Below, piece by piece: positions 2,735-58,732 of a DNA stretch of 64,000 bases. This DNA comes from Isurus oxyrinchus (lineage: Eukaryota). The notes beneath the pieces were generated by a model that worked only from the letters and a program-made list of their open reading frames with translations, searched no databases and was not told the DNA's origin. Both the position numbers and the translations under genes were made by a program. The stretch spans positions 4,340,001 to 4,404,000 of the forward strand of contig JANJGN010000034.1 of NCBI GenBank assembly GCA_026770705.1, in the 5' to 3' direction. The stretch's first letter is position 1. Each line of letters starts with the position of its first letter.

Positions 2735-2746
2735 CTTTTCTTCTCC

Positions 2747-32913: not shown

Positions 32914-32949
32914 AAAAGACGAGGCTCAGAACAGTTGGAAAGCATAAAG
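32914..32949 (+). CDS. 36-nt microexon (E)KTRLRTVGKHK
   Basis: Acceptor tctgccttttttcag, donor AG|gtgagg, open. Confidence 0.8.
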
Positions 32950-35734: not shown

Positions 35735-36060
35735 GATATTCATTCAAGACATGTGGCGGTCGTTAACAAGGTAAGCATCAGCTGCCCAAATATAATTGTC
35801 CTTGAACTGAGAGTCACGCTCAGCCATTTGAGAATCAATCAAATTGCATTGGGTCTGGAGAAGCATGCAAGTCAGCCCCGGTAAAGGGGACAGCTTTCCT
35901 TTGCAGGAGAACATTACTGCAGTAGGCCGGTTTTAATGGTTTTTATCAAAGGTGTACTGCAGCTAATATAATGAATCTAACTTTCTGTTCAGATCTTAAT
36001 TATGTTAAAATTTCCTGCCAGGAACATAACTTAGATAATCTGAAATAATGATGCAATGAC
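35735..36060 (-). mobile_element. Decayed SINE
   Basis: Begins with the reverse complement of the LINE-shared tail (gcccaaatataattgtccttgaactgag); related to 45940-46260. Confidence 0.5.
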
Positions 36061-36636
36061 ACGAACAGTGGATTAACCATAAGCAGCTGTTTTACACAAG
36101 GTTCTGCATGAAATGGAAGGATAATTGTGGTTTGCAACGTTCACCTTTTTCACGTACTTTTTTATACTTGGATCATTCCTGCCCCCAAACTATATTATTT
36201 CAATTTAATTTGTTTTGCTTCAAATATCTTAACTTTTCAGATCAATAGATAAGCCGTTGTGTGAATATGTAATAACAGCTCCATATTTTTCTTCTGAGTG
36301 CAATCTATTTGGAAAACATACTATTTGACTGATGTATAGTTTTAGACGAATCACTTATATTTCACTTTAAATCATTACTAATAGATACTGATTGGGCGAC
36401 AAAAATCGAAGGTGTGTAAAATAGAAATACTCCCTGAACTTTTTTAAAACCATAACTTCATTAATTACCCACTTGTGTGATTCAGTGACTGAGGTTTGAT
36501 AACCGGTGCATCCCATCAGGTGTCAACCAAATCATGTCCATTTCCGCTCCCAGAGAGCTGCTTTGGAGAAATGATAAAATATGACAGAGCAACCAGATAG
36601 TGCTCTTTACAGCTTATTTTGTTGCTAAATGTTCAA

Positions 36637-36766
36637 TTAGAGAAAATATGATTCAAAACAAAAATCCACCCTACAATTTTGATTTAATTAATTGTCTCTG
36701 TTATTAGAGACAATATGATTCAAAACCAAAATCGAACCTATAATTTTGATTTAATTAATTGTCTCA
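36637..36766. repeat. About 67-bp imperfect tandem duplication
   Basis: aatatgattcaaaac.aaaatc...aattttgatttaattaattgtctc occurs twice. Confidence 0.8.
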
Positions 36767-38733
36767 GTAATGTCTGCAGATTATCTCTCCAACCAATGTT
36801 GGACATTTCACATTACCCTGATGTTCAACAAAGCATATGCTTGCCTTAGACGACTACATTACTCAACCATCATCCAAAACCTTTCACCTGTGGTTGTTCC
36901 TCTGAATAAATTTTATTCTCCATACCCAGTCATGGAACTGTGCACAATTTTGAAAAAAAATATTATATTAAGGATATCAATGCTTTGAGAAAAAACAGTG
37001 TGCTTTGAACAAAACCATTTAAGAGAGAGCGGATTCAATTATCTGGAGATATTAAAGAAACCACGATTCTTCCCTTAATAGAAGTGCGGTTTTATGTTGA
37101 CCACAATAGGGTAGTAAAAATATTGTTTTGTAATGGAGTAAATCAGGGCATTTTATTTGTTCTGAGGAAAGGATCAATAACTAAGAAATGCATATTTAAG
37201 ATGAGTGTAAAGATTATGCAATAAAGAAAAGAAATACAATCCAAAATGCTAACTACTCTGACCTCGAATGCATTTCTTAAAAAGACATCCAAAGTATACT
37301 TCAACAAGCTATTAAATACATTATTGAAATGAAAAGTATTACAGGGTTATCCAGAAACTTTACGGTAATGGCACTGATTAGATTGATCTTCCAAAGAGCT
37401 CATAAGCTCGTAATGGGCTGCATGTCTCTTACTTGGTCTAACATTTAATAACATCCAGAATTTATTAAACTATACACTCGTATCACCTGATTTCCTGAAC
37501 GAGTATTAAGCATAAGTAAGTACCGAGCAGCTCAACCGAGATTACTAGTTGTAGGAAAGCTGCTATTAAGAATTTCCACCTGTCAACATCTGACTCATGG
37601 CCGAGAAGAAATTATAGCAGTTCTTTTTTTATAATTCCTCCATTGATGTGGTTTCCAAAGTTTAATCTTCCTCAGACTTTGACGTCATGGTACAACTGAT
37701 GTTATTGCTTTGCCCGTTTAATTTCTAAAGATTCTATTAGCTAATGCTTGTAAGCTCCTGATATGTTTTCTCCCTGACCTAATTCCAACACCACTTCATC
37801 ATGGAGGCTGCACCTACATCAGCACCTTTGCCAGCTGCCAAGTCCACCATTTCTTCAATCTTCCAGCTGATTTTACCAATGCAGATGTTGTTTTATATGT
37901 AATGGAAGCCAGAAGCGGCTGCACAAAATGTTCCCTTACCCTTTGAGAAATTTGATGTCACACCATCTGCTGCCTGGGCCTTAAACAGCAGCTGGTTCCA
38001 ATCATCATTACAATTCCACTAATTGATTGCGGTTCCAACCCACATGAGTGCATGAACTTTAAAAGACAATTTTGCAAAAAAAAATGCCGACACAGTCTTT
38101 CCCATCACCTTTTCTGCAGCCTCCTCCCTCTGGTAAGCTGTGCAGCTGTGACAAGAAATGCGAAATTCCCACGCCATCTCGACACAGTTGGGCCCATTAA
38201 ATTCCTCTGCATTTACTGGCTATTAAGAAAACAAAGAAAATTTAAATCACGAGCACACTTAATGGGAAATGAAAGTAAAAGAGGGTAAGTTGCATGTAAC
38301 GTCCTATGAAATTTTTACTCCCGCAATTTCCTTTCTTGTACCTCTGAATATATTCAATTCGCCTTTAGGGGCTGCATTTCATGAAGCCAGGTATCAGAGC
38401 TCTGAAATAACATACCTCAAAACACAAACACTCGGTGAACCACTCCAACCTCTAACCCACGCCCACCTACCCATTCCCCGCACTCTTTCCTCCATTAAAG
38501 TTTGATCAATTTCAGCTGGGTCATTCTTTGATAATCTATCGCAATATATGACGATGACACTTGGTAAAATTTTTTGTCCAAAAACAAACCTGACCACGTC
38601 ACGTTAGGTATCACTAATGCGTGGTGTATTATTTACACTCCAGTACAATCGATAGAGAAAACTTTATTTGAACACAATTGAGTTTTTCTTCCATGGAAAT
38701 AACGTTACAGACTGACGTATGACCACATTTCAG

Positions 38734-38760
38734 AGCTGGAACGAATTTTGGAAAAGATGG
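38734..38760 (+). CDS. 27-nt microexon (E)LERILEKM
   Basis: Acceptor ccacatttcag with ctgac branch motif about 20 nt upstream, donor GG|gtaagc, open; resembles 20649-20675. Confidence 0.85.
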
Positions 38761-40239
38761 GTAAGCAATGATTTGTCAAGAATTGAGCCAGAAAAATAGT
38801 CATTCGCTCCCAGCCAAGGGACTGTGACAGATAAAAAATGTATTGACAGCAAGATGGAATGTCACTGAATACATATTTACATAGAGGGAATTATTAACGC
38901 CATACTTTATGGGATCGGTCAGAAATAAATTGGTGGCAGGAGGTATGGCGGGTGGAGCATGTGACTAATGTTTTTTTTTTCCCCCATGTTATGAATTCCG
39001 TTAAATCAGATTCATAAAGTTACAACGGGATTTACGTCGCAGAGTGACGTGAAAAGCACCATGGAATCTCATTTAAACAATGCAGTGAAAGTTTCCATTC
39101 AATCCCCGGAGCGGACGATTGTTTATTTAATATATTTGCCCGTCCTCTGCTGTTTTGCAAACATTGGTCGTAAGAGCTCCCATAACCCCACTCGGACACA
39201 AGTTCCAGGGCATTGGCAGAAAAATTGAAAAAAAAATATTCACGTCTATAAAAACTTCCTTTGCTTTCACTTATTCCTTGCACCATCATTTAACATGTGA
39301 ACAGTTTTTCAGTGTCCTATCTAATCGAATCTTGTTACAATTTTCTTCACCTCCACCAAATACATCATCAATTTTCTTTGCTTCAAGGAAGAAATCCATA
39401 CAATCTTATCAGCTTGAAATTGGAGCAAAAATCCCCCTTCCCTGGAATCAGTCTGTTAAAAGCCTTCTCAAACTCTTAGGAACCTCACATTATTTCCAAA
39501 GTATGGGACTCAAAACTGAATGCGAAACTGTGGTTATGGACAGATAAGACCACTATTAAGATTGATTAAAGAAAAACATTTCTTCAATGTTGTTTAAAAA
39601 TATATAAATATTTAATTTACGAAGCACAATATCTGACGTGGTTTACCAAACGGGCTCTCTTTATGTTCTGCCACCTTCAAAGATATCTGCACCTACAAAT
39701 TCAAGTCACTCTGCCCATACATTCTTAAGAGCTATTGTATGTAGAACTCCATGTCTACAATAATATAAGTAATAGTGTACATATCTAAGCTTAGTCAGTT
39801 GAATTCAATAGCGAAGTTGAAGATCACAGGAGAGGAGGAAATGAAGAGAATAATGATATGTTAAAAAGTGCAGGAAAGTTGATTCCGGAAATGAGTGCTA
39901 AATGATCAACAGCTCAAATACTCTTTGCTTCAAATGCAACTCCTTATCCATTATCCATTATCCAAAAACTTATCCATTATGATGCGAAGTGGCTCAGAAG
40001 CACGGCAGGAAAAGGCACCATTTTAAACCAAAGGACTGAGTTGATCGCTTTCGAGAAACAGAACAAATAGAAACAAAAAAACTTCTGTATTGGACAAAAA
40101 AAACGTACATTTAGTCATTAAGTCGCGCAATATCGATCTTCAATTAAACCAGATCATGGTTGATCTGCATCCGACTGCTGGCCCCCCAATTAACACACTC
40201 TTGATAAGTTTCTCCTGTATGCACATATATTTAAATCAG

Positions 40240-40545
40240 TAAAGAAACAAACAGATGGATTGATAAATAAATAATGAGATAAATAAATGTACGATTCAAC
40301 AAATAAATAAATAACTAGATAGAAAAAAAAATAAATATATGAATAAATGTGTAACCAATTAAAAGCAGTGTAAACATATAAATATAGGTAGTGGGATAGG
40401 CAGATGGATACATACATATTTAGTTGGCTGTATAGATAGATGGATAGATGTATAGGTATAGATAGAGAAATAGAGGAATAGATACAAAGAAAGAGAGAAA
40501 GGTGGATTGAAAAATAGATAGATAGATCGATCGAAAGATACACTG
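40240..40545. repeat. Degenerate (ATAA/GATA)n simple repeat
   Basis: Runs of ataaataa and gatagataga; explains low-complexity ORF 40190-40564. Confidence 0.8.
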
Positions 40546-41204
40546 CCAGAAATATGGCAGTCATTCTGAAGACTAATTGATCAAGCTATTGTTGCTATCC
40601 CTAAATGACAGCAGGTTAACAGATAACATAAACTGATTATCAAAATGATGACTTTTCCTGAAAGTGCGGAGAAAGAGCCAGAGAGAGATATTAAGTAACA
40701 TCTCGTCCTAGTGGGGGAACAGGAAAAGATGATAGATCCACAATTATTGGCAATAAATATTGGTGGAAGATCAGTTTTTGGTAAATATCACAATTTGCAA
40801 GCACTTTTGCTGGGCTTTGGAATGTGCAATTACAAATTAACGAGGAAGATTATTCATTATCGAATTTTAAGAGGCATTTAGATTTCCACCGGAGTATGAT
40901 GTCATTACCTGATAATGAAAAAATAATTCTGAATGTGGTATCAACTAAAACTGCCCTTTAAACGATACAGCAAAGAGATAATGTACCAATTCATCAATTT
41001 CTGTGTCCCATGTATTCAAAAGCACAATCTTTTATTTTACGTTAATGCCTCTGCGTGGATTTCCACATTCCTGTCAGCTATTGCAATCCCTACAATTAAC
41101 TGTACTGATTTGCCGTTAATATTGAACACATTTTAAGGTAAGTAATTGGAGTGTTATGCTCTTAAGCATAACGTCCACCATTGCAGATGATCATATATCC
41201 CGAA

Positions 41205-41290
41205 TTAATATTATTATTATTGTTATTATTATTATTATTAGCAGTATTATTAATAGTAATATTATTATTATTTGTTTTATATATATATGA
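41205..41290. repeat. (ATT)n-rich simple repeat
   Basis: Directly visible. Confidence 0.8.
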
Positions 41291-42732
41291 TTTCAGCCAA
41301 AAATATCATAGTAAAGGAAAAAGGTAACTCAGTTATCCCATATATGCAAAGTTTTAGATGAGGTGCAAAATCATTGTGATTTCATGACATATTATTAAAC
41401 GGTTCATGTGATCCCTATGCATGGGAAATTGATTGTGACTGTTCTTAGGATTTGCCCAACACAAGCCCTTTATCTAGTAGTTATGATTGCCGAGTACCAG
41501 GACAAGAAATATTAGTGGAAGCAGTCGTAGGATGGGCAGCTTCGTGTATGCCAAGATTTGGAGACCATGGCTACATTTTGTATCAAGGTAAGGGGAATGA
41601 AAGATAATGCAATTAAACCTGAGAACACTCTAGATAAATTCACAGTATACATATGGAGAGGAAGCAAATTTCGCTTGGCCAATCACTCAAGAGCATTGTC
41701 ACAGGCATGGAAAATCATGTAAGATCAAAGTTACATTAGCTCAAAGATTTGTGAACATTTGGAATAATCTACCCCACAAGCCACTGGAATGCTGATTCAT
41801 TCAATATATGCCAGGTACTCATGTATGATTGAGCTATATGTATGAACACAAATATAATGAAGAAAATGGGGCGAGGAAAAAAAAAGAGAATTGAGGTGCT
41901 TTTCAGAAATTACATCACTGAAACAGCAAGTACTCCCAAGGGCCTAATGGCAAGCTCCTGCTCACATTTTATGCTATTTATGTGACAATTTTCCACTGCT
42001 TTATCAATCACAGAGGTGCCCATGTTATAGCGCTAATGTTGCTGCATATGTAATCGAGGCTACTGCTCAGTAGGCAAGAAATATACACCCTAATATTGGC
42101 GGATCAGATCTAAGAGCACGTCTCTTCGGTCATTCCCCGTGGCAAGGTGCAGATCATACCCAACAATCCCGTGCTTGACAAACTCAAAAGGCTGTGTCCA
42201 ACATTAAACAGGACCTCCACGACTTGAAAACTTTGGTACATAATCTTAAACTTGCTAAAGATTATGCTGTTAACAAAATTAAGATTGTCAGTTGTGCTCG
42301 CAGTGTGATGAATTGTCGTGTACAGAAAGCGCCTTACTCTTTGTAGGCAGAAATGACATGTATATACCTTGTGCCTGTTTCTGCGAAACATTATAATTAA
42401 CAGGCATTCAGACGTTCGTTCCCAGGACAAGCTCTTGCCAATCAGAGTCAAGTGGCCCACCTTAAATTTCAAACAACACTTAGCAGTTAACTGTCAGTTA
42501 GCATTAAGTGATGGATTACACTTGGCATCGAGTCTAACACTTGTCAAATAATCAGCGCACTTCTGTCCTGTTGCATAAATTATTTGTTCCGTGACATTAA
42601 TATTTTCTTGAGAATTGTCCAGATGAGTGCAAGTAAAATGCTTCGATAAAAAGCTCTCTTTCAGCAATCCTCAAAAGCTTTAATGGTACGGGTTTTCACT
42701 TTTGAACATTCCTCTTTTGTTTTCCTCAACAG

Positions 42733-42768
42733 AAATTCGCAAGTTGAGAAAAGCCCTCGGGGACAATG
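42733..42768 (+). CDS. 36-nt microexon (E)IRKLRKALGDN
   Basis: Acceptor ttcctcttttgttttcctcaacag, donor TG|gtgaga, open. Confidence 0.9.
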
Positions 42769-43867
42769 GTGAGAAAATCCATTTTTGCCTTTGGAGCTTT
42801 GGGTCGATGAGTATGAAGAGCATTGGGAGAATGCAAATTAGTGATATAAATCACGATTATAGTGTTTGCGCACTCCTGGTACTTTGCTCAGCCGGTGTGA
42901 AAATATTGGGCACGTCAGGCTGGCCAATGGCCTTATTTGTTATCCTTGTTCACTGCCTACTTGAAATCCCCTCACTGTCCCACTGCACGAACGTCATGCA
43001 GGTTGATATAGTTAAATAGAAACACAAATTGCTTTTGCCAATATGCAAGCAGCGACAAATGTGTCGATTCCATTGGCAAATAAAGTTGCTTCAGCGTGAC
43101 TGGATCTTCCAAAAACAGAACTTTTATTTTACTCCATGATCTCAGGTGTAACATAATGAAGTGCGTGATAATTAATGTGATCGTTTGTAATACAAAATGT
43201 CCTCAATGTAATGTTAATGCGCATCATTCTTTCCCAAAAAAATAATTAAAGGTTAGTGTCTATGACTGATTAAATTTTCCACTGCATTCATTAGGATAAT
43301 TTATAATAATATCAGTGCCATTACTGATTACTACCAGGGAGCTTCATCTACAGTGATAGTTAGTAATATTGAAGTTTTTGAGGAGCTTGAAGTGCGACAC
43401 CACTTCTGCTCCTATCACAAAGGGCAGCCCAAATCCACAGACTTTCACTAAAAAAAAAATTCTTAATTAGTGTGTCGCTCTCGCGTGGGTTTTGAAACAG
43501 GTTTCTCTCAGTCAGGTGGAATATGTGTTACATTATTTGGTTAACATATAATTCCAGTTAATAGCTAAGGACTTGTTGTATAGCAAATCAGTCGCATCAG
43601 GCTTTAAAGCATTTTCTAGCAAATCTGCCATTGAACCATTGAATGAACCCTTTGGTCGTCAATCTGATAATACCAGTGCACTCTGATTCTGAATTTGTGC
43701 CAACTACCAAATTTCCACTTTTCTGAGTTAACTCACAGTTGCAGCTCCAAAGGTGCACAAATTACAACTACGACACCAAAGTGTAACGCCAGTTTGTTTA
43801 CCGGCTGCAAAAAATAAAATGACTTCCTTTTTCTCCCGATTGATTTTCAACTTTCTCTTGACAACAG

Positions 43868-43894
43868 CTAAACAGCTTCGTGAATGTATGCAAG
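43868..43894 (+). CDS. 27-nt microexon (A)KQLRECMQ
   Basis: Acceptor ctttctcttgacaacag, donor AG|gtaatg, open. Confidence 0.85.
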
Positions 43895-44299
43895 GTAATG
43901 TTGCTCTTCATTTGTGCTCTTCATTATATATCAATTTTCAACTTTAATGTTGTTAACTATTAGTTTCTGCGCTTTCAGAGATGTAAAAAACGAACCAGTG
44001 GCACACTGGTTTGGGAAAAATAAGATTTGCAAGTCGATCAATTTGGATCCAATGTTTTGCTTGACAATTGGGAAATAGTATCTTCATAAGTTAACGAGGA
44101 CATTCCATGCAAAAAAAAAACACTGAGGTGCACTTATTGATTATCAGAAGAAGGAAAACAGAATTTTGCATTTAACTTATATAAAAAAAGTCTTTAAACT
44201 AGCAGCCATATAAGCATAACTACATTGTTGAATCGAGAGAATAAAATACACGGGAGAGGTTTTTTTTTGCTTATACATAGAACAATTATGGTAGTGCGT

Positions 44300-45610
44300 A
44301 ACTTAAAACAGCAGGCTCTTAAAATTACCAATTGAGCTTAAAACTGTAGCTGGAGACTGATGTTTGCATCTGCGATAAGCATAAAAATGGTAGTTACGAA
44401 AAATTTGTAGCCAACGAAGAGTGGAAAGTCAGGCCAGCATTAAAACAATTCCTTTAAATGGCAAAAGAAAAGAAAGCATAGAAACGAATGTTAAAGCAAT
44501 CGGAACATTTGGCTGAGAGTTCCTCGCGCCTGATTGTCTATGTCTTTGCCATCAAGTGGTTATGGAAATATTAATTGAATTGCTTGCAACCTTGCAGATT
44601 ACACTAGAATCTGGAAGGATACCTTTGTATTTGAATAACACAACTCTAACGCTTCTGCTGAAGGAAAGAGGGATGACGAAGTCTGAAAATTGAGGGCGAC
44701 TTCACCAAAATACCAAGTTTAAATTGATCGGAGCACTTATTAAAGAGGTTGAGACAGGGCATTTAAAATATAAATTTGCATTCACACAGATTCAACACGA
44801 TTGGGTTAAAGGGAAATAATGATTAAAAAATTAGGTTAACTTTAGGATCACAAACCAGAGTAGAGACACAAAAAGGTGTTGATAAATTGTTTTGAATTAC
44901 AAAATCGATCAGGACACATACGATGTTAACGGCAAACAAAGCAATCCGGATGTTGGAAGTGATGTTATAGCACACATGTGGAATTATCTTTGTATCAGGA
45001 AATAGAGTCGTTATGAATTGATCATTTACTGCTTGGCAAACTTTACTTACAGTGGATGACTGTACTTGGATTAATGCTGTGATTTCTTGAATGAATTATC
45101 TATAATGATGTCATACCTGAAGCAAGCCAATGACATTAAGAACATAGCTAGATTTGGAAGTTGTGCAGGAGATGCAATAATAATGCAAAAAGATATAGAC
45201 ATGTTAAGTGAGTGAGCAAACACAAAAACAATGGCCGATGGAAAATAACGTGGAAAATATGTGAGAATGCCCAATTTCTCAGAAATATAATGTGGCGAAA
45301 GGAGAAACTGATGGGGACTGCCATATGGTGCCGAAGGAATGTTACAAAAATAATGTTTGTCCTATTTCAGACGAACATGAAGGGGATTTTTTCACTAGAT
45401 TATTATTATTTTGTATTCTCTTCCGTATCAAGGAGTGAATGTTGGGCGTTGCATGAATTGAATTTTGAGTTGGAATTAATATTAAATGACAAGGGATTGA
45501 AATGTAATGGGGTCAGAGAAGGAAGTTTAAATACGAAAATGATTATGTTGGATGGTGTAGTAGTGTGGAAGGGACGCAAGGACTACTATTTCCCTTATTC
45601 CCTCTGTTTT
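44300..45610 (+). mobile_element. Highly decayed CR1 LINE ORF2 and 3' end
   Basis: Remnants of LESGRIP..TLTLLLKERG, QHDWVKGK, QKDIDMLSE*A and a CR1-like 3' tail. Confidence 0.6.
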
Positions 45611-45939
45611 TATGTCCTTGATTACGTGACAATTTCAGGATAAATCTCCGTTCTCATAAATTAACTTGAATGTCTGGTTAGCAAGCATATAGAATAAATA
45701 TCATAGCTGCTTTCAATAAGAAGTCAGATAAGTGTATGAGGGAGTATAACGACAGCACATCCCAAGCATCCTCAGATACCTTAAATTACAGGTGAAATAC
45801 GGTCCTAGGCATAAGGCATGAAATGGGGAGATAAATCGTTTACATAAATTTTCCACAAGTATTATTGTCAACTAGCCATGTCACCTGATTACCGACTGAC
45901 GGAAAACCAATTGTAAGAACATCAAAAGACATAGAAGGT

Positions 45940-46260
45940 TGTGGCATGCCGGTAATGTCACTGGGCTAGTTTTTAAATGGCCCAGGGTAATCCTCAAGGG
46001 GCCCAGGTTCCAACCTCACCACGACTAGTACTGGAAATGTTTATTCAAGAAAAAAATATTTTTTTTGTCGTAAAATCAATTCTGTTCACTGATGCAATTT
46101 AGTTTAGGAAGCCTGCCATCTTTAACTGGTCTGGCTGGGCCTACATATGAGTCAAGTCCAGCCAACACGTGGTTCACTATTCTTTCCCTTCTCAATACGG
46201 ACCATTAGGGATTGTGAACAAATACTGGCCTAGCCAAGGCAGCCGCATCCCTTAATTATA
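45940..46260 (+). mobile_element. tRNA-type SINE with LINE-shared tail
   Basis: gtggcatgccggtaatgtcactgg (A-box-like), ggttccaacc (B-box-like), and tail ttagggat..aaatactggcctagcc matching the LINE tail at 18118-18150. Confidence 0.6.
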
Positions 46261-47292
46261 TAAGAAGTGCTGCCAGAGGGACTGCATACACTGCCTATAT
46301 TCAACTTGTCAGCCAAGAGACAACATTTGTAAAATTACAGCGGATATATATAGGCATTTACGCATTTCTGAGGCTCAAGTGCAGTATCAGGGAATTTGGA
46401 TGCGTGTCTCCAGAACCAACTGGACCTCAGTTACTACGTGCTTCCAGTGAAATTGTTCGTGTGGAGGTTCCTCTGATGGAAAAAAAACGGTTAGGCCATG
46501 TTTTTAAGTTCCACTCTATTAAGTTCTGATAGTAATGTTCAATTAGTTTTGGTATGCTTAATTATGTAAAATGACGTTGCATTTCAAAGCATATGTTTGG
46601 AAAAGCATCATTGTTTTAGCTTGTGTTGTAATTTTCAGCTTAGAATATAGGTAATTGCTGTGCAAATACAAATAAAGCCAATCACTTTATGGAGGGATCA
46701 TCATTAACAGTAGCTGAAAGGAATAGCATAAACGAGGAGAATAACTTAAAACAAAACACATTTGAGAACATAGCTCTGAAAGCAAACTAATACATATGCA
46801 GCTAAATCGCACATGTCACCATGTTATCCTTTTCCAATGTGTTCTGCAGCCAATATATCACATTTCAGCAAACAGAAAAAAAAGAGGAGACACGGCTTTC
46901 AATTGTTAATGCAGCATGTGCCTACAAACGGCAATGTGACAATATCTGGTCGAACAGTTTCAGTGGTGCTGATTGAAATTAAAATATTTGTCAGGGTATC
47001 AGATAATGCACATCTTCTGCTTTGAGCTGAGAGCAGTAGGATGTATTGCACTAGCCTCAGAGAGTAAACGATGCATTGGATTTTGTGTCTACTGATGGTG
47101 TCGTTTATTGCTCAGCCAAACTTCCAATCAAATAGATTATTTACATGTCAGTGAGCAGTATTAAACATTAAGCTTTATAACAACCGATGCATGCAGCATC
47201 GAAATTTTGAGCTACAAACGAGAAGAAACAGCCATCCAAAATTTGCCGAACCATGACAAAATTCTTTGACTGAATATGTGTTTGCCTTTCAG

Positions 47293-47328
47293 AATTAGGT
47301 CAAACGAAGAAAACTCTCACAGAAATAG
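47293..47328 (+). CDS. 36-nt microexon (E)LGQTKKTLTEI
   Basis: Acceptor tgtgtttgcctttcag, donor AG|gtgagc, open. Confidence 0.88.
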
Positions 47329-49049
47329 GTGAGCCCATGTTCTGTTGACAACTTGTTTTTCAATTTATGTTGTTTCATAAGTCCGTTTCATTAGTCATAT
47401 AAACTGTAAAAAAAATGAAAGCTGACTGTGCTCACTTTATATTTTTGTTTGATGGAATAACTTATCACATTGAAATAACAACGAGCAATATAGGGAAAAA
47501 GCATGGGATGAAGTGATATTTTTCTGACGTTAATTGATCAACTGACTGAAGATTAAACCGAGGCATCAACATGAAAATCTGGCTCCAGTGCATTCATTTC
47601 AATAAGATGATATTTCAATAGGAAAATAAAACGAATATTACAAGAGTGATAAAAAATTCCACTCCACAGTCCCCATAAATTCGCAATGTTCTACAAGGGC
47701 GTATAAGAATTTGCAAAGAAACGATGGACAAAATTTCCAAACACTGTGCTGTAAAATTCCAGACAATCGACCGATGTTAATAATTGTTTTTTGGTGAAGA
47801 AGAGGCACGCTATCGAAGCTTGCTATCTTGCAAATGGTGCACATCCAGTTTGAAAGAATATCAAATCTCAAAGGGAACACTACTTTATACTACATGACTA
47901 GAGGATAGTGCTTCTTTGGCAATTGGGATTTGCTTGTTCGAAGCTTTGTCCCCAGGCTTTTGGTACATGGCAAACATTGCAATGCATGGAAATGTTACTT
48001 TTGATTTTATAGGGGAAGGACTCATTTGTGAATATATTAATTTTCTACCATGCGTATGTGAGACCAACTGATAGCCAAAATGATATTAATGAACTTATTG
48101 CTCCTGAAATTCCTGAAACAATCATGATTGTATCGGAAGTATTGTCCAGTAGTGTATCCATATCAAATGTTGTACATTATGTTCTGAGTTTTGCACACTC
48201 AGTATTTTTCTTGTGGTGAACAACCAAAGGGGAGGGAGTTTCATGCTATACAGAAGTCAATGGCACATAAGACCTACTTGCCTGGCATCACTTGGCTTGA
48301 TGGCAGGATGCTGATAAAGGAGAATACCACTTCTATTGCTAGGCAAAATAGTGGCTCCAAAGGGCTAGCTTTCCTCATTTCACAAAAGGTGAGACATTTT
48401 CCCTCAAGGGCAATGTGAGGGAATCTGGATACTTTTCAGTACGGAAGCTGGGGGCCTTAAGCTATGGCAAAGTAATGATCTATTTATCTGAAATGTGCAA
48501 GGCTACAAGGTTTAAGGACTATCGATCGAAGCCACCGTTCTAGTAGAAACCAACAATTTGTTTTGGCGACAGCTATAACCAGAGATAATTCAATTGAAAC
48601 ACGATATATAAGGGCAAACATAAAATGTTTACTTCCATGAATTGTTCCTTTTTAAACCCCAAAGAAGTGTATGGTGATTAGTAACGCGCCCTTTTCGCAC
48701 GGCAAAGCCTTGCCCAGTCAGATTCTGCTTGTCTGGCTTGAATTTAAGCATTGTCCTGGCAGTTGTCTGTCCCATCCACGATTTACACTGGCAACACCTC
48801 TACGAATTATAGCCCACTTGCTAACCAAACAGTGCCGTCTCCAGAAACAGCTTAAATTGCTGTTGCATTTGATATTTGATAATCTTGAGAATCTATCGTG
48901 ATGAATGTAAGACAAAAAATTCCTAAAACAAGTGTCCTTTTCAGCAATTCACAAGTTTTGCATTAGCAGGCCATTACCTGAAATGATGAAGGTTAAGCAA
49001 ACATGAAGCAATCTATGACTGTGACTATTCCCGAATCAATTCATTTTTG

Positions 49050-50900
49050 AAATTAGCCCATGTTGCAGCTATATTTTTTCCCACCAAACTATGGTTTCAT
49101 CTATCTGACCCAATTCTGTTCTTGTATCAGCGAAGGTGGCACTGGTCCATTTAAGTATTCCTACTCTGGATTGCTTATCGTAATTTTCTATCATCATTCT
49201 AAAGCATACAATACGATGATCATTGTATCCTAAATGTTTCCCAAGAGAAAGTTGATCTACATTGCCCACCTCGTTTTCAAGAACCAGGTAAAAGAGAGTA
49301 TCGTTTCTGGTACCATTGAATACATAATGGAATAGAAAAGTTTCCTGCACAATATAATACATTTGCCCCTCTCCGCCTTTTACACGACTAATGTCCCAGT
49401 ATAAATTCGGGTAATTGCTATTATATCATGTTTGCATCTGCCAGCAATGGCCCTGAAGATTTGCTCTTCTACACCTTCTTACTTTTCCCTAACCAAATTG
49501 ATTATGCCCTTGAACCATCTGGGAGGACGTTTTTCCTCCATACTGCAATTTCCTCCTTAATCTATGCCACTATGCCTCCTCCATTCCTATCAGTAATGAA
49601 CATTATTTGACCAAGAAATATTTAAAACTCATTCCTGCTATTCCTTGTTCCACGTTTCTCTCATCGCCACAGCATCATGTGGCAATAATAGCAACATGGC
49701 AATCGGTGCCTGTAAATATCAGACCCTTTTTTTTTACTAAACCCCGGGCATTGACATAATAAGTTTATTAACTCTGGCTTAGATGTCTTTACATTCCCCT
49801 GCACATACACATATCTAATAATTTTATTATTCTTTATCATGGTGATAACTAACCCTCCGAGAAATTTATACACCCAAGAGCATTCCTCTCTAATAATGTA
49901 ACTTTGTTCCCAACCGCTGCTGAGTTAATTAAAAGCCCTCAAAAACTTACGAGCAAAACCAATAAGGAACTCAGCCACAGCTCTGTTCAGATGCAGCCCA
50001 TCGGCTTGTAAAGTTCCCATCTCACCCTTGACAGTCCGAGTGTACCAGGAATCTAATGCCCACCCTCCAGCACCATTCTTCCAGCCATGCATTTGTTTGC
50101 ATTATTCTCCTACTCCTGTGCTCGTTGGCCCGTGACACATGGCATAATCCGGAGATTACTACATTTGAGGGACTGCTTCCTAATTGTCTAGCTAGCTCCC
50201 TAACTTCTGATTTTAGGATGAAACCCCCTTCCTACCATTGCTGCCAATGAGAGCCTCGAACTATGGCTGTTAACCTGCCTCTAGAAGAATGGCATGTAGC
50301 TGCTCTGTGACATAATTCCCCCTGGTATCAGGGATCTGACAGACTATCCTGGTGTCACATATACTGGCCACAGGAACGTCTCTCCGCTCCCCTAACCAAT
50401 GTATTACCTAGTACTATTACCGTTTCTCTCTTCCGCCTCTCTTCCTGCACAGCCCAGCCGTTCGTTTTTCCACAAACCTCCCACTGACTGCATTCCACTA
50501 AAGAATTGGCGACCTCACAAACTTCCAAAATGGAAAATCGATTTGCGAGTGGAACTCCAGTGGTCTACATCAATAACAATCTACATATAGTGGACTGTCT
50601 GGTGGTCAGCAATTCCCTTATTTTCCAGTCACTAATGCCGCCATGTGAATATCTCTCTCAGCATGCACTCAGCCCCGCTGCTGTGCCACAGTGACCCCAA
50701 CCGCTCCTTGATTTCTGAATGTCGGAAGTCAATTTCTGCAATTGACAGTTTTTCCTGAAAATGTGGTCATCTAGGACACCGGTAGTGTCCATTACTTGTG
50801 ACATATTGTGGAACAATCGTTGTTTTGGAACTCTTGGTTGATGACACCACTGCTTGGAGCAAGTGAACGTTTGAACATAATACAGAATGGATGTCTCTGA
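49050..50900 (-). mobile_element. Degenerate CR1 LINE 5' half (ORF1 and APE region)
   Basis: LVLENEVGNVDQLSLGKHLGYNDHRIVCF (APE C-terminus); QVMDTTGVLDDHIFRKNCQLQ (ORF1 N-terminal Cys region); esterase remnants at 49950-50400. Confidence 0.8.
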
Positions 50901-51016
50901 AAGTCCTTCTGTTTTGCATCCCAGGCTCATGTGCTGCATAAACTGTAAACCTCACTTCAAATTTATACCTGCTTCTGGCGCTACACATGTCATTGCTAAG
51001 AAATTACATTTTTCAG

Positions 51017-51043
51017 AGGCAAGTTTGGACCAATGTCTGAAAG
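51017..51043 (+). CDS. 27-nt microexon (E)ASLDQCLK
   Basis: Acceptor ttacatttttcag, donor AG|gtgaat, open. Confidence 0.85.
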
Positions 51044-52414
51044 GTGAATTACGACAAAGCATGTTTTGTTCGTTATTGCGGTGAACAATGTTTGCATTTT
51101 TGTAGACAATGATGCTGAGCGAACCAAGAGTGAAATTTTTTGAAGTATTAAACACGATTTTTAAAACTCTGCTTATGATGCCGGATAATAAGAGAAGAGT
51201 GGTTATTTGCAGAAGTAGCGCCCTTGGTCAGAAATGGTTTTAAAGATTAGCCCAGAAACACAACTCTCAGTTTAGAATGGGTGATCAGAAATAAATTGAA
51301 AGAGATCATCATTTCGAAAAATGGGTTTGGATGAATACATTTTTATTACTCATAGAAAGCCGGCACACATTTGCAACGGTAATCTGTTTTATCTAATAGA
51401 ACAAGTTTCATTTTCAGGAAGTAAGATAATATGTTGAGATGAAGAAACAGATGAAGGCAGTAGTTATAGCAAAGGTTTTGGCACTTGTCCAAATGGCATC
51501 AATTGGGATCATAGGACGTACTGGAAAACTCCCAATATTACCACTGACCTAACATTTAACTGCACTAGCATTATCGATGATCAGGCCAGAGCTTGGAAAT
51601 CCTATGATGACTAACTGACCTCATAACTCTCTAGTGCAGCATGCTCAATGCATGTGTCAGCGTTGAGTTGGAATACATCCCAATTTCATGAATGGGTGAA
51701 GGAACACCAAAAAAAAAATAGGCATGAGTCACGAAAATTTAACCCACTTGATCCAATGTACCGCCTTAAACCTCCCGCCTCCAAAACAGAGTGGACGCAG
51801 TGAATACCACATGCATGATGCAACACAGGAAGTCGCCAGATTTCCTTCAACAGCACATTCAAAACTCACGGCCTCACCACATTGGAGTACATGTTCAAAC
51901 AATACCCTAATACCTCAACAAACCACAAGCACTGAGAACACGGAACAAAATGTTTAATCCTTTAGTGTTTTGACATCATAATCATGGAGATCACTTTTCA
52001 AAAATGACGGCGAAAGACAGGCCGGCAAAAAATCAAGACAACATACCACCACTATCTTTTCCAGGACAATTGGCGTTGGGTAGTAACTTGTGGCCCTTCC
52101 AGCGAAGCTGAAATTACATGCAAGTATAACAAAATTAATCAACGCTGTAGTTCTGGTGTGAGTGTCCTAATGGAATAAGTTTTACAAAACTTGTTAACAT
52201 CTTTTCATTGAAATAAAGTGGTCAATAGAAGCATAGATGCAAATTCAGTTATGGGAGAGGAAAGTGTGAGTCGTGTTGAATGGTAGTATTTCTCTCAGAC
52301 TAGCGAAAAATACGATGGAGGAGCAACATAAAAGTACTTGCACAAACTAAGCAAACGTGATATAAGAGATCAGAACCTGCTGTATAAGCGTTCAAGTTGG
52401 CAAAACATTGACGA

Positions 52415-52865
52415 ATTGAAAATAGGAGCAGCAGAATGTCACTCAGCCCTTCGAACCTTTTCCGCCATTGAGCATGAGCATGTCTGATCATTTATCTCAA
52501 CGCCATATTCCCACTCTCTCTCCATATACTTTGACACCTTTAGTGCCTATAAATCTACGTATTTCTTTCAAAAGTATATTCAATGGCATGTCCTCTACGG
52601 CACTATGTGGCAGAGAATTCGATAGAATCAGCACTCTCTGAGTGAAGGAGCCTCTCGTGACCTCTGTTCCAAATGGCCTAAGTGTATCCTGTATTTGCAA
52701 CTACTGGTTCTACACCCCTCTCCAGAGAAAACATTTTCTCCACGTCCAGTCTGTAGAGCCCGGTTAGAATTTCATACATTTCAAATGAGATCCGCTCTCA
52801 TTCTTCTAAACTCCAGTGAATATAGTTCTAGTCGAACCTATCTCTCCTCATACTACAATTCCACC
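52415..52865 (-). mobile_element. CR1 LINE 3' end
   Basis: Minus peptide RGSFTQRVLILSNSLPHSAVE and a CR1-type tail. Confidence 0.8.
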
Positions 52866-52889
52866 AACCAAGCACCTAGGTGCCATTGC

Positions 52890-53560
52890 GCAGCAATCAC
52901 TGAAATTAAGAAGCAGGTGCAGCAAGCAGTTAAGACGGTAAATGGTATGTTAGTCTTCATTGCTTGGGTGCAGGAGCAAGCAGGTCTTACTGCAGCAATT
53001 CTGGTCCTTAGTGAGATCAGAACTGGAGCTCTCTGTCTAATATTAATCTCCTAACATAAGTATTGGCGCATGTTTAATCGAGATCGGGCACCGAGTGTTT
53101 GGCAGACCGATTTCCGCTATTGCAGAATCGTTGTATGAGGAGAGATTGGGTAGACTAGGCATGTACTCACCGGAGCTTTGGAGATTGCAATGAAATATAT
53201 AACATTTTGACAGAGCTCGGCACACTGGTTGCAGGGATAACGGTTTCTCTGCCTAGAGGTCTGGAAAGAGGGACAAAAACTCTGGGTACCGAGGAGTGCA
53301 TTGATGACTCAGATGAGTTCATGCTTCTTCACTCATACGTAGGTTGAGCTGTGCAATTCTCTACTACTTTGTTGTCGAGGCAAAGTTACTGAAAACCTTG
53401 AAGAAATAAATAAGTCGATTATTAGGATGTAAAATTGTCAAGAGGTATGGGAAGAAGGCAGGATTATGTCCTGGAGCCAGAGGATCAGCCATGATCATAA
53501 TGTATGGTGGAGCAGGCTCGACAGGAAGAATGGCATACTCCTGTATCGATTATCTCTTTC
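52890..53560 (+). mobile_element. CR1 LINE 3' end
   Basis: QVQQAVKTVNGMLVFIA, LYEERLGRLGMYS, tail gatcagccatgatc..ggagcaggctcg. Confidence 0.8.
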
Positions 53561-53677
53561 TCTGAAGGGACAGGGTGAATAGTTTCCTTCTATATTGTGA
53601 TACATCTCTGAATTTATGATGGAAACTTCTTCATTTCATTCTAACTTCATCTATATTTTTACCCACAATGTTTTCAG

Positions 53678-53704
53678 CGGTGGGGGATATGTGCAAAACT
53701 GATG
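53678..53704 (+). CDS. 27-nt microexon (A)VGDMCKTD
   Basis: Acceptor tttttacccacaatgttttcag with ctaac branch motif, donor TG|gtatgt, open. Confidence 0.75.
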
Positions 53705-56700
53705 GTATGTCGTTCTAATTATGCACAGTTGTGAAAAAAAAAAACTCCCAGGCTGCTGTACATTCAGCTTAGTTGTTGTGTGAATGGATTATGGAACAGA
53801 TTTCAAAGAGCAATAAAAAAACAAATTATGTGCGGTTAGATCATGAAATTATCTTAATGATCAGATTCCAAAAAATAACAATGTTGCATAGCATAATGCA
53901 TTATAGGGCATGTGCAGCACCGAATGAGAGAAAGAAGCCCAGTTGGTCCATGCATTCCTTTACGTCTAGGCGAATATACACACACCCTTCTCCAAGTAAT
54001 CTCAACAAAATATCCTTATATTGAAATTCCCAGCACCAGCCGCCAAAATGTACATGTCTGCTCTAAGTCAAAACTATCCAACCATTTAAGAATCTTGGAG
54101 GCCTTAATGTGCGCATCACTCAAATGTATGATTCTGCAGGGATATTGAACCTGACAATATTACATTGACATTCTTTATCTCCCAGTTATTACATCTTTCT
54201 TGTAAATGAAAATTGCTTGTGCAATTTATCCAATGCGATTGTGTTTTTTTGTTCTGTAGAATGGTAAATCGAGCGTTGCATAGTGCTCCAAAGTTATTCA
54301 ATGCATTTTCTATAGAAATTCAGCACAGCTTCCTTAACTTTACATTATCTTCCTCTGGAATTAATTAGCAGCGTTTTTGACTCCGTTTACTGTATTCTTC
54401 TTAAACTGTGCCAACATTTAATAAAATTGCACTGTGAAGATTGTTCAGTTTTACACTTGATTTGGATACGTTAAATCCAGCGAAAATTTGCCTCGTTTAT
54501 TCTCGCTGAGAAAATGTTCATAACATTTATTAACCAATTCCATGAACAATCAGTCAGTTTGTTAATGCATTTCTTACATTTGTCCCCTTAGCCGTATTTT
54601 CCAACGGGGAGTGGTGCTATTTGCAAACATTTATTCACTTTAGTCGATTTTGCAGTTGGAATTATTTATATAAATGGAATGCGGCAGTGGATGCCATGAC
54701 TGCTTTTGTGGGACACCGCTTCACGCAATACTCCAGAGTGAGTACTTGCCTGCAACACTTCTTCTTAGTTTTCCGTTCAATTTCTGATTATCCACCTTGC
54801 GACTTATTTCTAGACTGCACATGTTCTGACCTTAACCATAATTCATGTTATTGCATTACTTTGCCTTTTAACACCCCTTCCGATTGTCAGTTCCATTCAA
54901 TTGTTATCGGTTATGTAATGTGATGAACGAGAATAGGAATTATATATGTTTTGCGTCACTCTCTTATCCAACTTCTCAAAGTATAGTATAGCTTGACGCA
55001 ATGCCATTCAACAGTGTGCCTTCAATCGCAAATATTCCACATGAGAATGGAATTTGGGGGAAAAGGAAAAACTCAATGTAAGTACGGTGAACTATTTGAC
55101 TCCATTCCACAATCACATATTCCAATGAGGGTAAATACTACAAAGCTGTTTAAATGAAGGTAGAGCTTTACGATCTCATGATGTATCACATGTTATGCAC
55201 AACTCTCAGATCAAAGGTTAATTTCATCCATTTCGAACCGTTGTTGCTTGATTGCACTGTCAACCCACAGCTTTGCAGTTTGAGGTTCACAGGATAATCA
55301 TCTATGTAACAACGTTGACTGAACACATGCATCCTTATTTACTCAAAGATTCAGAAGATACATTTTTGGCATATAAACAATTTGGGCGCCTGGGGGTTAT
55401 GAAAGGGGCGAAATAAATGGGAATTAGTTCGTTATTTGATATGTGCTTAATCCAGTCAGGCACTTCAAATTACCCTTCAAACTCGTACAGTAATCAATTA
55501 ATTATTTTAAATTATAATATCACTGTTATGATGTCGAGTTGAAATTATTTCGCCATTGCAGATGAACGACTGCTTGAAGCAGAACATGTTAAGGAAGCCT
55601 TTAATGGTATCTCATGTGTAAACATTTATAAAAGCAACACTCCAATTATTTAACTTTAAATCTCCTCTAATGTATCACGGTAATTTGAAAGGGTGTATTC
55701 AATCGGGCGTGTGCAATATTTGAAGCAAGTGCAACTGATAGCAGTTTAATTCATCCTTGGAGGTTAGCATGTAATGGGGGTAGGCATTCAGTGACCAATT
55801 GTGAGCCTAACTCTTTCATCATTATTACCTATGCCCTTGTTTGGCATTTTCATTTCATCTTGCCATTTCATCACTCCTACGCTCCAAGATATCACAACAC
55901 AAACATTTTCTTATATCTTGTTAAATGTTTACATGCCACTGTATGTGCCTAAAAACTGCTAGATTCTCACCTCCATCTATACAGATGAAAATCCAGCGCC
56001 CTGAAATCTGGTATATATTTCTTTGTCCAAGGAGGTGATTCAAAATTTGCTCATGGTGTAGAACAAGGTGCTGAAGCAAAGGCTCGACATAATTTGGTCA
56101 TTATAGAGCGAAAAAAAATCAGTACAGCCCTAGCTTTATTATTACAAGACGAATTGCAGACTGCAAAATGTGCATCAGGAGCACTATCTTATATTTTCTA
56201 TTAAAGGCGATGGGCAACAACATATGCACCAGAAATTCGTGCTAATAATTTGATAATGCAGTCGTGACATAGATTCAGACATCGAGAATTTACTCCAGAA
56301 TCTATTAGTGTTAATTCAAGGATGCGTGCAACATTGCAGAATGTGTAGCCATTCAAATCATTGAACACTTTGCTGGCTCTTTGAGATTATTTTTCAACTG
56401 ACCCAATTTCCGGCCCTCTTTCTTCTGAAACACAATGCTTTTTAAGATCATTCAATTGCAATCCATTTGCCACGGAAATCTGACAGGACAACCAGTTCCA
56501 ATATTCTTTTGGGCAAAGGATTACAAATCATTATAAGTCAATGAAAGATAACAAGCCCAAAGCATCCCTCCCTTCGCCACTTAAAGGAAATGTGTCTTTC
56601 CTGGCTACCCATGATCCTACCATGGGGGATAAAAAGAAGCATCTCCTGTTCTGCTATATCAAAAGCCGTGGCTGTATTAAAATTTGAATTTAACAACTGC

Positions 56701-56759
56701 TTTTATTTAATGTAGAATAATCTCATCTAAAGCCTTTTTGTCACTTATATTCTCTTCAG

Positions 56760-56795
56760 AACTTAAACATCTGAAAAGCAGCATGAAAGATAAAG
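56760..56795 (+). CDS. 36-nt microexon (E)LKHLKSSMKDK
   Basis: Acceptor cttatattctcttcag, donor AG|gtgacc, open. Confidence 0.8.
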
Positions 56796-58714: not shown

Positions 58715-58732
58715 AACTGAATCTTGTCCCAG
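58715..58732 (+). CDS. 18-nt phase 1-1 microexon candidate (E)LNLVP
   Basis: Strong pyrimidine tract ccttcctctgccttttccgacttcttataacag, donor AG|gtcagt, open; size differs from the 27/36 pattern. Confidence 0.4.

Follow-up and report, generated by a model that had tools for sequence, protein, structure and literature searches.

Micro-exons of the window and the predicted gene

The stretch of DNA analysed here, 64,000 nt of Isurus oxyrinchus (the window), falls in its entirety (1..64000, + strand) within a predicted shark gene of ~811 kb. About 220-230 micro-exons of 21, 27 and 36 nt were called in this gene, the last exon of which encodes a PRY-SPRY/B30.2 domain, as listed in Table 1. Alternating 36- and 27-nt exons extend along most of its length, ~180 of them as 36+27 pairs, and all exons are phase 1-1 and preserve the frame. 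When 221 exons were joined, 2171 residues were obtained with no stop, while five called exons, probably broken copies, introduce a stop at their junction. With a probability of about 0.75, the four segments starting at 42733, 43868, 47293 and 51017 are predicted AG/GT-bounded micro-exons of the same phase in the middle of this gene, the pairs of which encode three heptads each of a likely 2,200-residue rod tipped with a B30.2/SPRY domain.

Table 1. Predicted exons and exon blocks. Positions are those of the window, or of the contig where preceded by C34; decoy counts are those scoring as high as the exon.
Feature	Position	Strand	Splice ends	Remarks
Most 5' exon found	C34:4005537-4005647			111 nt; outside window
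21-nt exon block, ~36 intact	C34:4070498-4191989			outside window
36-nt predicted micro-exon	3138..3173	+		weaker alternative donor at 27 nt
27-nt predicted micro-exon	6213..6239	+		0/2984 decoys
Irregular micro-exon, 36-nt-like start	20649..20675	+		better donor 27 nt, weaker 36 nt
27-nt predicted micro-exon	23819..23845	+		0/2984 decoys
36-nt predicted micro-exon	27323..27358	+	AG/GT
27-nt predicted micro-exon	29338..29364	+	AG/GT
Irregular micro-exon, 36-nt-like start	29883..29909	+		better donor 27 nt, weak donor 21 nt
36-nt predicted micro-exon	32914..32949	+		0/2488 decoys; not in earlier list
Possible irregular 27-nt micro-exon	38734..38760	+		splice-only model yes, full model no
27-nt predicted micro-exon	41297..41323	+		0/2984 decoys; immediately 5' of 42733; not in earlier list
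36-nt phase-1 predicted micro-exon	42733..42768	+	AG/GT	12 aa, heptad g to d
27-nt phase-1 predicted micro-exon	43868..43894	+	AG/GT	9 aa, completes 21-aa unit
36-nt phase-1 predicted micro-exon	47293..47328	+	AG/GT	0/2488 decoys
27-nt phase-1 predicted micro-exon	51017..51043	+	AG/GT	weak acceptor
36-nt predicted micro-exon	56760..56795	+		0/2488 decoys; series goes on
Strict 36/27 alternation, 39 exons	C34:4570771-4619152			outside window
Terminal PRY-SPRY/B30.2 exon with stop	C34:4816507-4817027			Pfam SPRY E=2.9e-14; outside window

Nine micro-exons of the window had been cited in an earlier note, and each of the nine, 27 or 36 nt long, has a preceding AG, a following GT and no stop in the phase-1 frame. 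For the chain 42733/43868/47293/51017 and for 3138/6213, that note had also given correctly the codons at the junctions and which residues occupy positions 2 and 5 of the heptad. Regarding its third chain, 27323+29338+29883, the splice ends hold, whereas the sizes are 36+27+27 nt (or 21 nt for the last, with a weak donor), only the first seven residues of which had been taken. The exon at 42733 has generic acceptor and donor scores of 6.9 and 4.2, matched by none of 2488 decoys, and that at 32914 scores of 5.5 and 7.1. Between 42733 and 51043, no further candidate of 21, 27 or 36 nt exceeded the threshold; for the best one below it (48440), 34 of the 2984 decoys scored as well. In the left part of the window, irregular exons (20649, 29883, 38734) are out of keeping with a clean 36/27 series. 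RNA contigs from four runs of the same species, compared with window positions 42001-62000, matched at repeats alone, exons of 27-36 nt being probably too short for such matching, and this outcome speaks neither way on expression.

The length spectrum was obtained with a generic splice-site score from which coding information was left out. On the + strand of the window, six of 42 candidates were of 36 nt and four of 27 nt, with a mean of 0.3 for each other length; on the - strand there were none of either size among 34. Over the 811-kb span, 58, 36 and 22 of the 602 + strand candidates were of 36, 27 and 21 nt, respectively, while other lengths had a mean of 4.6 and a maximum of 12; the - strand gave 5, 6 and 7 among 544. 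The phase-1 frame was open in 56/58, 34/36 and 21/22 of these + strand candidates. It should be noted that two of the segments, considered one by one, are weak, which would agree with chance AG...GT segments picked by eye: 43868 lies slightly below the model threshold (2 of 2984 opposite-strand decoys as high) and 51017 is equalled by 1 of 2984. Against such an origin, which has a negligible probability, stand Poisson p values of about 1e-42 (36 nt) and 2e-20 (27 nt), the lack of a like excess on the opposite strand, and paralogs outside the training sample: models trained on the main gene gave alternation at 16/21 and 20/30 junctions in two neighbouring paralogs, with 0 and 1 calls on their opposite strands. 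Chance is refuted for the exon set as a whole.

The model of one gene over 811 kb is based on the same strand, the same phase and a sole terminal exon. The many broken copies would also fit a set of shorter genes, or an array in decay in which the exons of the window are partly dead, and so would the database relatives, which are mostly short models of 200-460 aa. This arrangement is quite improbable, as a single 111-nt start-type exon and a single B30.2 exon were detected within the span, the candidates are open in phase 1 as given above, and a chimaera has a relative of 1697 aa. Five B30.2-type terminal exons lie on the same contig, and the gene would be one of several predicted genes of 0.5-1.5 Mb that annotation pipelines have shortened and misnamed. 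Searches for the first coding exon by ATG-to-donor scans, comparison of paralog upstream regions, and tblastn and ungapped scoring with the N-termini of relatives gave nothing above the opposite-strand background.

Exon order, heptad register and the likely rod

Exons of 36 and 27 nt called with exon-interior models, which are blind to exon order, alternate at 149 of 180 junctions, compared with 90.5 after shuffling (0 of 20000 shuffles), leaving 31 junctions that do not alternate. Calls from splice sites alone alternate at 87 of 138 junctions against 68.5 shuffled (p=6.5e-4). In the strict 39-exon stretch, the hydrophobic pattern has a period of 3.50, which disappears on shuffling the exons. 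The Fourier power at 3.5 amounts to 49; 300 shuffled orders never gave more than 9.5, and omission of all 27-nt exons leaves 0.4. The claim that 36+27 nt, or 21 aa, forms a repeat unit of three heptads is thus borne out for the gene. In the 36-nt exon the heptad runs g-a-b-c-d-e-f-g-a-b-c-d and in the 27-nt exon e-f-g-a-b-c-d-e-f, which is why an unbroken 3.5-residue stripe appears in the natural order only. Among splice-only calls, 72 exons of 36 nt are hydrophobic at positions 2, 5, 9 and 12 in 88, 86, 65 and 43%, respectively, and 47 exons of 27 nt at position 4 in 81%, compared with about 35% in decoys. Position a is L/I/V/M/F/C in 84%, while d is hydrophobic in 47% and e and g in 5-6%; the 3.5 period, the a/d core and the charged e/g positions of a heptad coiled coil are therefore all present. 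Of the cysteines, 56 of 58 are at d. Position 7 of the 27-nt exon, also d, is mostly Lys, a weak core. Glycosylation sequons are not enriched (8 vs 7.7).

A hendecad period was rejected, with a power of 1.2 at 3.67 as against 49 at 3.5, as were collagen-type exons in multiples of 9 nt (Gly 2.8%, Pro 0.2%). An apparent 36+36+27 (33-aa) repeat downstream proved to be an artefact of missed weak 27-nt exons. The 21-nt exons comprise one class similar to the start of the 36-nt exon (its first 21 nt) and another similar to the end of the 27-nt exon (its last 21 nt), each at 52% and by small margins.

The rise of a coiled coil is 0.15 nm per residue. The product would be a spacer about 300 nm long, formed by a parallel coiled coil, which may keep the B30.2 binding head distant from a short hydrophobic N-terminus. 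A hydrophobic N-terminal stretch (hydropathy 2.9 over 11 residues and 1.5-1.6 over 19), either a signal peptide or an anchor, occurs in two relatives, in both cases in predicted gene models of other species. By analogy with the tails of BG and butyrophilins, a membrane anchor with a cytosolic rod has perhaps an even chance; a signal peptide for a secreted fibre stapled by disulfides is a possible but lesser candidate, and that the hydrophobic N-terminus is absent is unlikely. The AlphaFold model of the skate protein, made with no alignment and of low confidence (pLDDT 45), consists of a pair of long helices plus a beta domain.

Duplication and possible loss or skipping of exon pairs

Intron-containing tandem duplications were observed, one of 7455 bp at 99% identity with one 27+36 pair and another of 22 kb at 83% with several, and broken exon copies are numerous within introns. 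Within 231 kb, 33 of 136 recognizable copies are broken, and the intact copies alternate at 92 of 102 junctions. Neighbours of the same size number 10, compared with about 22 expected under independent single losses. Several broken copies were probably duplicated together with their block, and when they are counted as ~20 independent losses the deficit has p=0.07. At several sites, at least two broken 36-nt copies lie amid intact exons that still alternate. The two copies of the 22-kb duplication show 21 differences in exons, 17 of which change the residue by a crude count, implying that sequence constraint is loose.

The best reading of these data is that the 36+27 pair is a tandem duplication unit held in register by selection. 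Blocks of whole pairs, introns included, have been duplicated in tandem, and exons appear to be gained and lost in evolution two at a time; the gene would grow and shrink through exon birth and death, with selection on register keeping the surviving exons alternating, so that any "code" would operate mainly on an evolutionary time scale. The record of broken copies hints that, in evolution, what becomes of an exon is tied to its neighbour through the structure of the protein. A two-exon module may instead have been copied many times, the alternation being a by-product of inheritance with little selection on register. The whole pairs inside duplicated blocks, the loose residue constraint and the weakening of the broken-copy test when copies are non-independent all agree with simple copying, which is nevertheless unlikely, because the pair is exactly three heptads with the a/d stripe running across both junctions, the pattern persists in diverged paralogs and chimaera, and intact exons alternate around multiple broken 36-nt copies.

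It had also been suggested that splicing could exploit this design, with pair skips setting rod length and single skips deliberately placing hinges. The arithmetic behind this suggestion, that one skipped exon keeps the frame and shifts the register while a skipped pair keeps both, is correct. The term "stutter" is wrong: loss of a 27-nt exon amounts to an insertion of 5 and loss of a 36-nt exon to one of 2, whereas in PMC4786415 a stutter is an insertion of 4 and a stammer one of 3. According to the same paper, an insertion of 5 can be absorbed by the helix as a 19/5 periodicity, while an insertion of 2 breaks it. The frame-preserving phase of every exon is favourable to regulated skipping, as are the generic splice sites, which are much weaker for 27-nt than for 36-nt exons (median 3.5 vs 7.7; 1.5 vs 10.1 in the strict stretch), so that the skip tolerated by the helix is easier than the disruptive one. 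Furthermore, in each of three relatives a predicted isoform is missing a single 9-aa block, and both skipping of BTN3A heptad exons and shortening of chicken BG tails by splicing are reported in the literature (for BG, PMC5938342, PMC4046983). However, the four internal differences in the RefSeq isoform sets are of 9, 9, 9 and 6 aa and never of 21 aa, and introns within and between pairs are similar in length (median 1694 vs 1547 nt, p=0.33), leaving the pair unmarked as a splicing unit. Moreover, duplication and selection suffice for the pattern, and a regulated splicing code is doubtful.

Equally speculative is a family of cartilaginous-fish megabase genes with ~ninety two-exon modules, in which a 300-nm rod is tuned by splicing. 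If this were true, a coupled 36+27 skip would shorten the rod by 3 nm with the register kept, a lone skip of a weak 27-nt exon would give a locally unwound insert and that of a 36-nt exon a nonad break, and the gene would constitute a splice-programmable molecular ruler for the B30.2 head. Neither size is a heptad multiple, and gain, loss or skip would shift the register predictably (0, +5, +2), making this a single gene suited to testing the old question of whether the fates of adjacent exons are linked by protein structure, both evolutionarily and during splicing.

Relatives and known systems

Comparison with relatives from chimaera, skate, ray and shark revealed a common architecture with differences in blocks of 9 and 12 residues. 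Callorhinchus XP_042192744 has a hydrophobic N-terminus, a coil of about 1450 aa and a B30.2 domain of the same clade, and the skate protein XP_055510696 likewise begins with a hydrophobic stretch. Where the two Callorhinchus models of the gene disagree, it is for the most part over blocks of 9 and 12 aa. The chimaera models lack a clean Fourier peak at 3.5, likely owing to missing exons, and their autocorrelation is led by lags 12, 33, 21, 7 and 42. In a B30.2 tree, rooted at the midpoint and containing only three BTN rows, all 14 B30.2 domains of this kind fall into a single clade with a support of 0.99, separate from 17 BTN/TRIM domains. Word-index protein searches with queries of up to 2000 aa found no close long relative, and that with the chimaera protein gave two matches only, apparently the same gene. 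The RefSeq names of relatives, "TRIM39-like", "A33-like", "nuclear-pore anchor-like" and "myosin-2 heavy chain-like", appear to have been assigned automatically.

The earlier note knew of no such architecture. No description of the 36/27 split and no mention of the gene family turned up in the open-access literature searched; heptad-coding phase-1 micro-exons, on the other hand, are known from BG and butyrophilins, of whose heptad-exon design the shark gene is an extreme and apparently undescribed version. According to PMC5938342 and PMC4046983, the tail exons of chicken BG genes number 13-37 and encode one heptad each, their length being 21 nt or, in rare cases, 18 or 24 nt, from which it follows that any BG exon can be removed singly. 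As described there, the BG tail shares with the shark gene a long coiled coil in many phase-1 micro-exons, the number of which varies by gene, and a true heptad that crosses exon junctions. The shark gene also contains a BG-like block of ~36 21-nt exons; the rest is 36/27, in pairs that are in register only jointly, which differs from BG. BG is described there with an IgV and a transmembrane exon and without B30.2, whereas the shark gene ends in B30.2 and no Ig exon was found.

BTN1A1, BTN2A and BTN3A likewise have short heptad exons and, after them, one terminal exon for B30.2, according to PMC6790196 and PMC4046983, and the best PDB match of the domain profile was the BTN3A1 B30.2 (E=1.4e-30), followed by TRIM21/7/58. 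Despite that top match, the shark B30.2 lies in the separate cartilaginous-fish clade, and butyrophilins, as described there, carry IgV+IgC as well as a transmembrane helix and have a handful of heptad exons, compared with about 310 heptads in the predicted shark rod. No Ig domain was found among 229 stop-to-stop frames of at least 72 aa upstream of three paralogs (with the neighbouring gene as bound, frames over the 10-kb locus edges cut and, for the third + strand paralog, 105 upstream frames left out), nor in any of six relatives. A coiled coil followed by a C-terminal PRY-SPRY is shared with TRIM21, TRIM39, TRIM58 and TRIM69, after which RefSeq named the relatives, although the RING or B-box that precedes the coiled coil in a TRIM was found neither in the same upstream frames nor in the six relatives. 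Guinea pig enterophilins combine B30.2 with a long leucine zipper, in which the heptads number up to about 30, and are not known to have an Ig domain; their coil is about ten times shorter than the predicted shark rod. The stalk of CD23/FCER2, which carries a C-type lectin head, consists of 21-aa three-heptad repeats, each encoded by one of three 63-nt exons. In this unrelated family a whole repeat thus occupies one exon, compared with two exons per repeat in the shark gene.

Micro-exon content and extent of the predicted gene

All nine exons cited in the earlier note are preceded by AG, followed by GT, 27 or 36 nt long and open in phase 1, and the residues it had written across them are reproduced by the junction codons. 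A generic splice-site score, built on approximate site frequencies and using no coding information, gave 42 candidates on the + strand of the window; 36-nt candidates account for 6 of these and 27-nt candidates for 4, where other lengths average 0.3 each. Neither size occurs among the 34 on the - strand. Exons 42733 and 47293 have strong scores, and each of 43868 and 51017 is weak on its own, being matched or beaten by 2 and 1 of 2984 opposite-strand decoys, respectively. Between 42733 and 51017, no additional 21-, 27- or 36-nt candidate lies above threshold. The chain 27323+29338+29883 is less clean, the better donor of 29883 lying at 27 nt. The exons at 20649, 29883 and, if real, 38734 are 27-nt exons with a 36-nt-like start (hydrophobic at 2 and 5), some having two possible donors; these irregular exons interrupt the regular alternation and may represent natural breaks in the register. 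Simple tandem repeats occupy 36636-36765, 40263-40540 and 41204-41272 of the window, and most RNA contigs map to its interspersed-repeat fragments at 42462-42498 and 52766-53543.

In a genome of 4.98 Gb, in which the window occupies C34:4340001-4404000, micro-exons of this predicted gene run for 811 kb from a 111-nt exon to the B30.2 exon. Over this span the generic score yields 602 candidates on the + strand, 58 of them 36 nt long, 36 of 27 nt and 22 of 21 nt (mean of other lengths, 4.6), versus 5, 6 and 7 of these sizes among 544 on the - strand, and the phase-1 frame is open in 56/58, 34/36 and 21/22 of the + strand candidates, respectively. Leave-one-out models, with a threshold taken from the opposite strand, called 231 exons (96 of 27, 91 of 36 and 44 of 21 nt); after removal of 10 weak or T-ending calls, the remaining 221 encode 2171 residues with no stop. 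A block of 21-nt exons at C34:4070000-4192000, on the contig that holds the window, comprises two sequence classes and about 18 broken copies, and is interrupted by occasional 45-48-nt exons with aromatic residues.

Exons of the gene and paralogous terminal exons (positions counted from the window start, negative values lying 5' of it; Mb values are positions on C34)
Feature	Position	Strand	Detail
Most 5' exon found	-334463	+	111 nt, phase 1; start of micro-exon run
Additional window exon	20649	+	
Additional window exon	23819	+	
Additional window exon	32914	+	
Possible additional window exon	38734	+	perhaps an exon
Additional window exon	41297	+	
Additional window exon	56760	+	
Terminal phase-1 exon	476507	+	172-aa PRY-SPRY/B30.2, Pfam SPRY E=2.9e-14
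Paralogous terminal B30.2 exon	2.71 Mb	-	172 aa
Paralogous terminal B30.2 exon	3.47 Mb	-	172 aa
Paralogous terminal B30.2 exon	4.82 Mb (the exon at 476507)	+	172 aa
Paralogous terminal B30.2 exon	6.40 Mb	+	172 aa
Paralogous terminal B30.2 exon	7.50 Mb	+	172 aa

Exon order, heptad register and duplication

In the 36/27 zone, calls from splice sites only alternate at 87/138 junctions against 68.5 after shuffling (p=6.5e-4). Models that use exon interiors, and are blind to exon order, raise this to 149/180 junctions with 21-nt calls excluded, against 90.5 after shuffling, and 149 was reached by 0 of 20000 shuffles. An unbroken alternation of 39 exons extends from 230771 to 279117, and their conceptual product displays a hydrophobic peak at period 3.50 with a power of 49; shuffling the exon order 300 times never gave a power above 9.5, and removing the 27-nt exons lowers it to 0.4. 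The claim that a 36-nt and a 27-nt exon form one unit of 21 aa, or three heptads, is borne out by this alternation and by a period of 3.50 that appears only in the natural order; the pair is real.

Among splice-only calls, positions 2, 5, 9 and 12 of the 36-nt exons (n=72) are hydrophobic in 88, 86, 65 and 43%, and position 4 of the 27-nt exons (n=47) in 81%, compared with about 35% in decoys; position 7 of the 27-nt exons is mostly Lys. With the register set by exon size alone, a is hydrophobic in 84%, d in 47%, and e and g in 5-6%, and 56 of 58 cysteines sit at d, figures that are partly circular as the underlying calls used exon interiors.

Self-comparison reveals tandem duplications containing introns and whole 36/27 pairs. 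A 22-kb duplication of 83% identity carries several pairs, and one of 7455 bp with 99.2% identity (C34:4625475-4640371) carries one identical 27+36 pair, being either very recent or an assembly artefact. A copy scan that did not require AG, GT or an open frame found 136 exon copies in 231 kb, of which 33 are broken or have a questionable GC donor. Among the 103 that are intact, the two sizes follow each other at 92 of 102 junctions. Had exons been lost singly and independently from an ancestor that alternated, about 22 neighbours of equal size would be expected, against 10 observed (p<1e-4). If no more than about 20 of the losses were independent events, some broken copies having been duplicated along with their block, 14 such neighbours are expected (p=0.07). 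Selection on heptad register is thus likely, though unproven. The amino acids themselves are under loose constraint: of 21 differences that separate duplicated exons, 17 lie in changed codons, with exon identity at 91% and that of the whole block at 83%.

Paralogs, relatives and the predicted protein

The five terminal exons on C34 mark a group of clustered genes of very large size, the other four showing 40-59% identity to the B30.2 of the window's gene. Scanned with models trained on that gene, two paralogs alternate at 16/21 (p=0.02) and 20/30 (p=0.015) junctions, with 0 and 1 calls on their opposite strands; a third alternates at 3/4, and a fourth has 21-nt exons only. A second gene, whose first exon found is homologous to the 111-nt exon, begins 42 kb past the B30.2 exon of the window's gene. 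The window's gene and its - strand neighbour start head-to-head within about 30 kb (C34:3974961-4005537). The third + strand paralog (C34:6459146-6478453) apparently begins with 21-nt exons, has a B30.2 nearly identical to that of the second and is possibly a partial recent duplicate. An open frame at C34:6415857 (5857-6288 of contig stretch L103) is, by resemblance, a candidate G-protein-coupled receptor fragment. On another contig, C21, one region at about 83-118 Mb holds 141 of the 150 B30.2 matches listed, a very large B30.2 cluster.

HMMER, covering 1.84 billion representatives, and cluster look-ups recovered B30.2 domains of this type from skate (XP_055510696), catshark, electric ray, basking shark and chimaera. 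SPRY/PRY are the sole Pfam domains above noise in 6/6 relatives. The Callorhinchus protein XP_042192744 (1697 aa, named 'nuclear-pore anchor-like') consists of a hydrophobic N-terminus, a basic cluster, a coil of about 1450 aa and B30.2. A B30.2 tree (FastTree, midpoint root, 3 BTN rows) groups the 14 long-coil domains in a single clade (0.99), separate from 17 TRIM and BTN domains; the C21 member at 89.72 Mb falls in this clade. The source organism is accordingly regarded as a cartilaginous fish, in agreement with the earlier note. The top PDB match of the window gene's B30.2 is BTN3A1. PMC5938342 and PMC4046983 describe chicken BG tails with 13-37 exons of 21 nt, heptads across junctions and shortening by splicing, and PMC6790196 describes BTNs with few heptad exons before B30.2 and exon skipping in macaques. 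The window's gene works like such a BG/BTN tail. No Ig, RING or B-box was found in 229 frames upstream of three paralogs, in intervals bounded by neighbouring genes; differing thereby from BTN and BG (Ig) and from TRIM (RING/B-box), the gene is therefore filed as a separate cartilaginous-fish family. Searches of openly accessible papers listed nothing on this long-coil family or on the 36/27 design.

We infer that the product would be a spacer of parallel coiled coil, about 300 nm long at the textbook rise per residue, carrying a B30.2 domain as its head. Single-sequence AlphaFold gave a pair of long helices plus a beta domain for the skate protein, at low confidence. A search for the first coding exon did not find it; two relatives start with a short hydrophobic stretch. 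This N-terminus has perhaps an even chance (about 50%) of anchoring the protein in the membrane, the rod then lying in the cytosol, an arrangement favoured by the basic cluster after the hydrophobic stretch in chimaera and by the BG/BTN analogy. A secreted fibre stapled by disulfides, favoured by the cysteines at d, is a more tentative possibility. Sequons are uninformative between the two.

Predicted consequences of exon skipping

If a 27-nt exon is skipped, a unit of 12 residues is left, equal to an insertion of 5; if a 36-nt exon is skipped, the remaining nonad amounts to an insertion of 2. According to PMC4786415, the former can be absorbed by a helix over two heptads (19/5), the latter forces a beta-layer in trimers, and a stutter and a stammer are insertions of 4 and 3. 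Hence the earlier proposal that single-exon skips shift the register stands, and its label of 'stutter' does not. Splice sites are weaker in 27-nt exons (median 3.5 vs 7.7 in 36-nt exons), which fits the 9-aa isoform differences in relatives: internal differences in predicted RefSeq isoform sets of three relatives are 9, 9, 9 and 6 aa, with none of 21 aa and no paired skip. The two database models of XP_042192744 have 14 listed differences, and 10 of these are 9- or 12-aa blocks. Intron length does not differ within and between pairs (p=0.33). Given equal introns and no paired skip in these isoform sets, the 36/27 code is established as gene architecture only, and its regulatory role is putative; the 36/27 observation is confirmed, and its earlier interpretation is partly supported, for the three-heptad unit and the arithmetic of skipping; a setting of rod length or hinges by splicing is hypothetical. 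Among the degraded copies, a 36-nt copy at C34:4475148 has a broken acceptor and a good one upstream that would give 45 nt, and a 27-nt copy at C34:4537903 has a broken donor and a good one at 24 nt; these shifted sites would alter the register by 3 and 1 residues, respectively.
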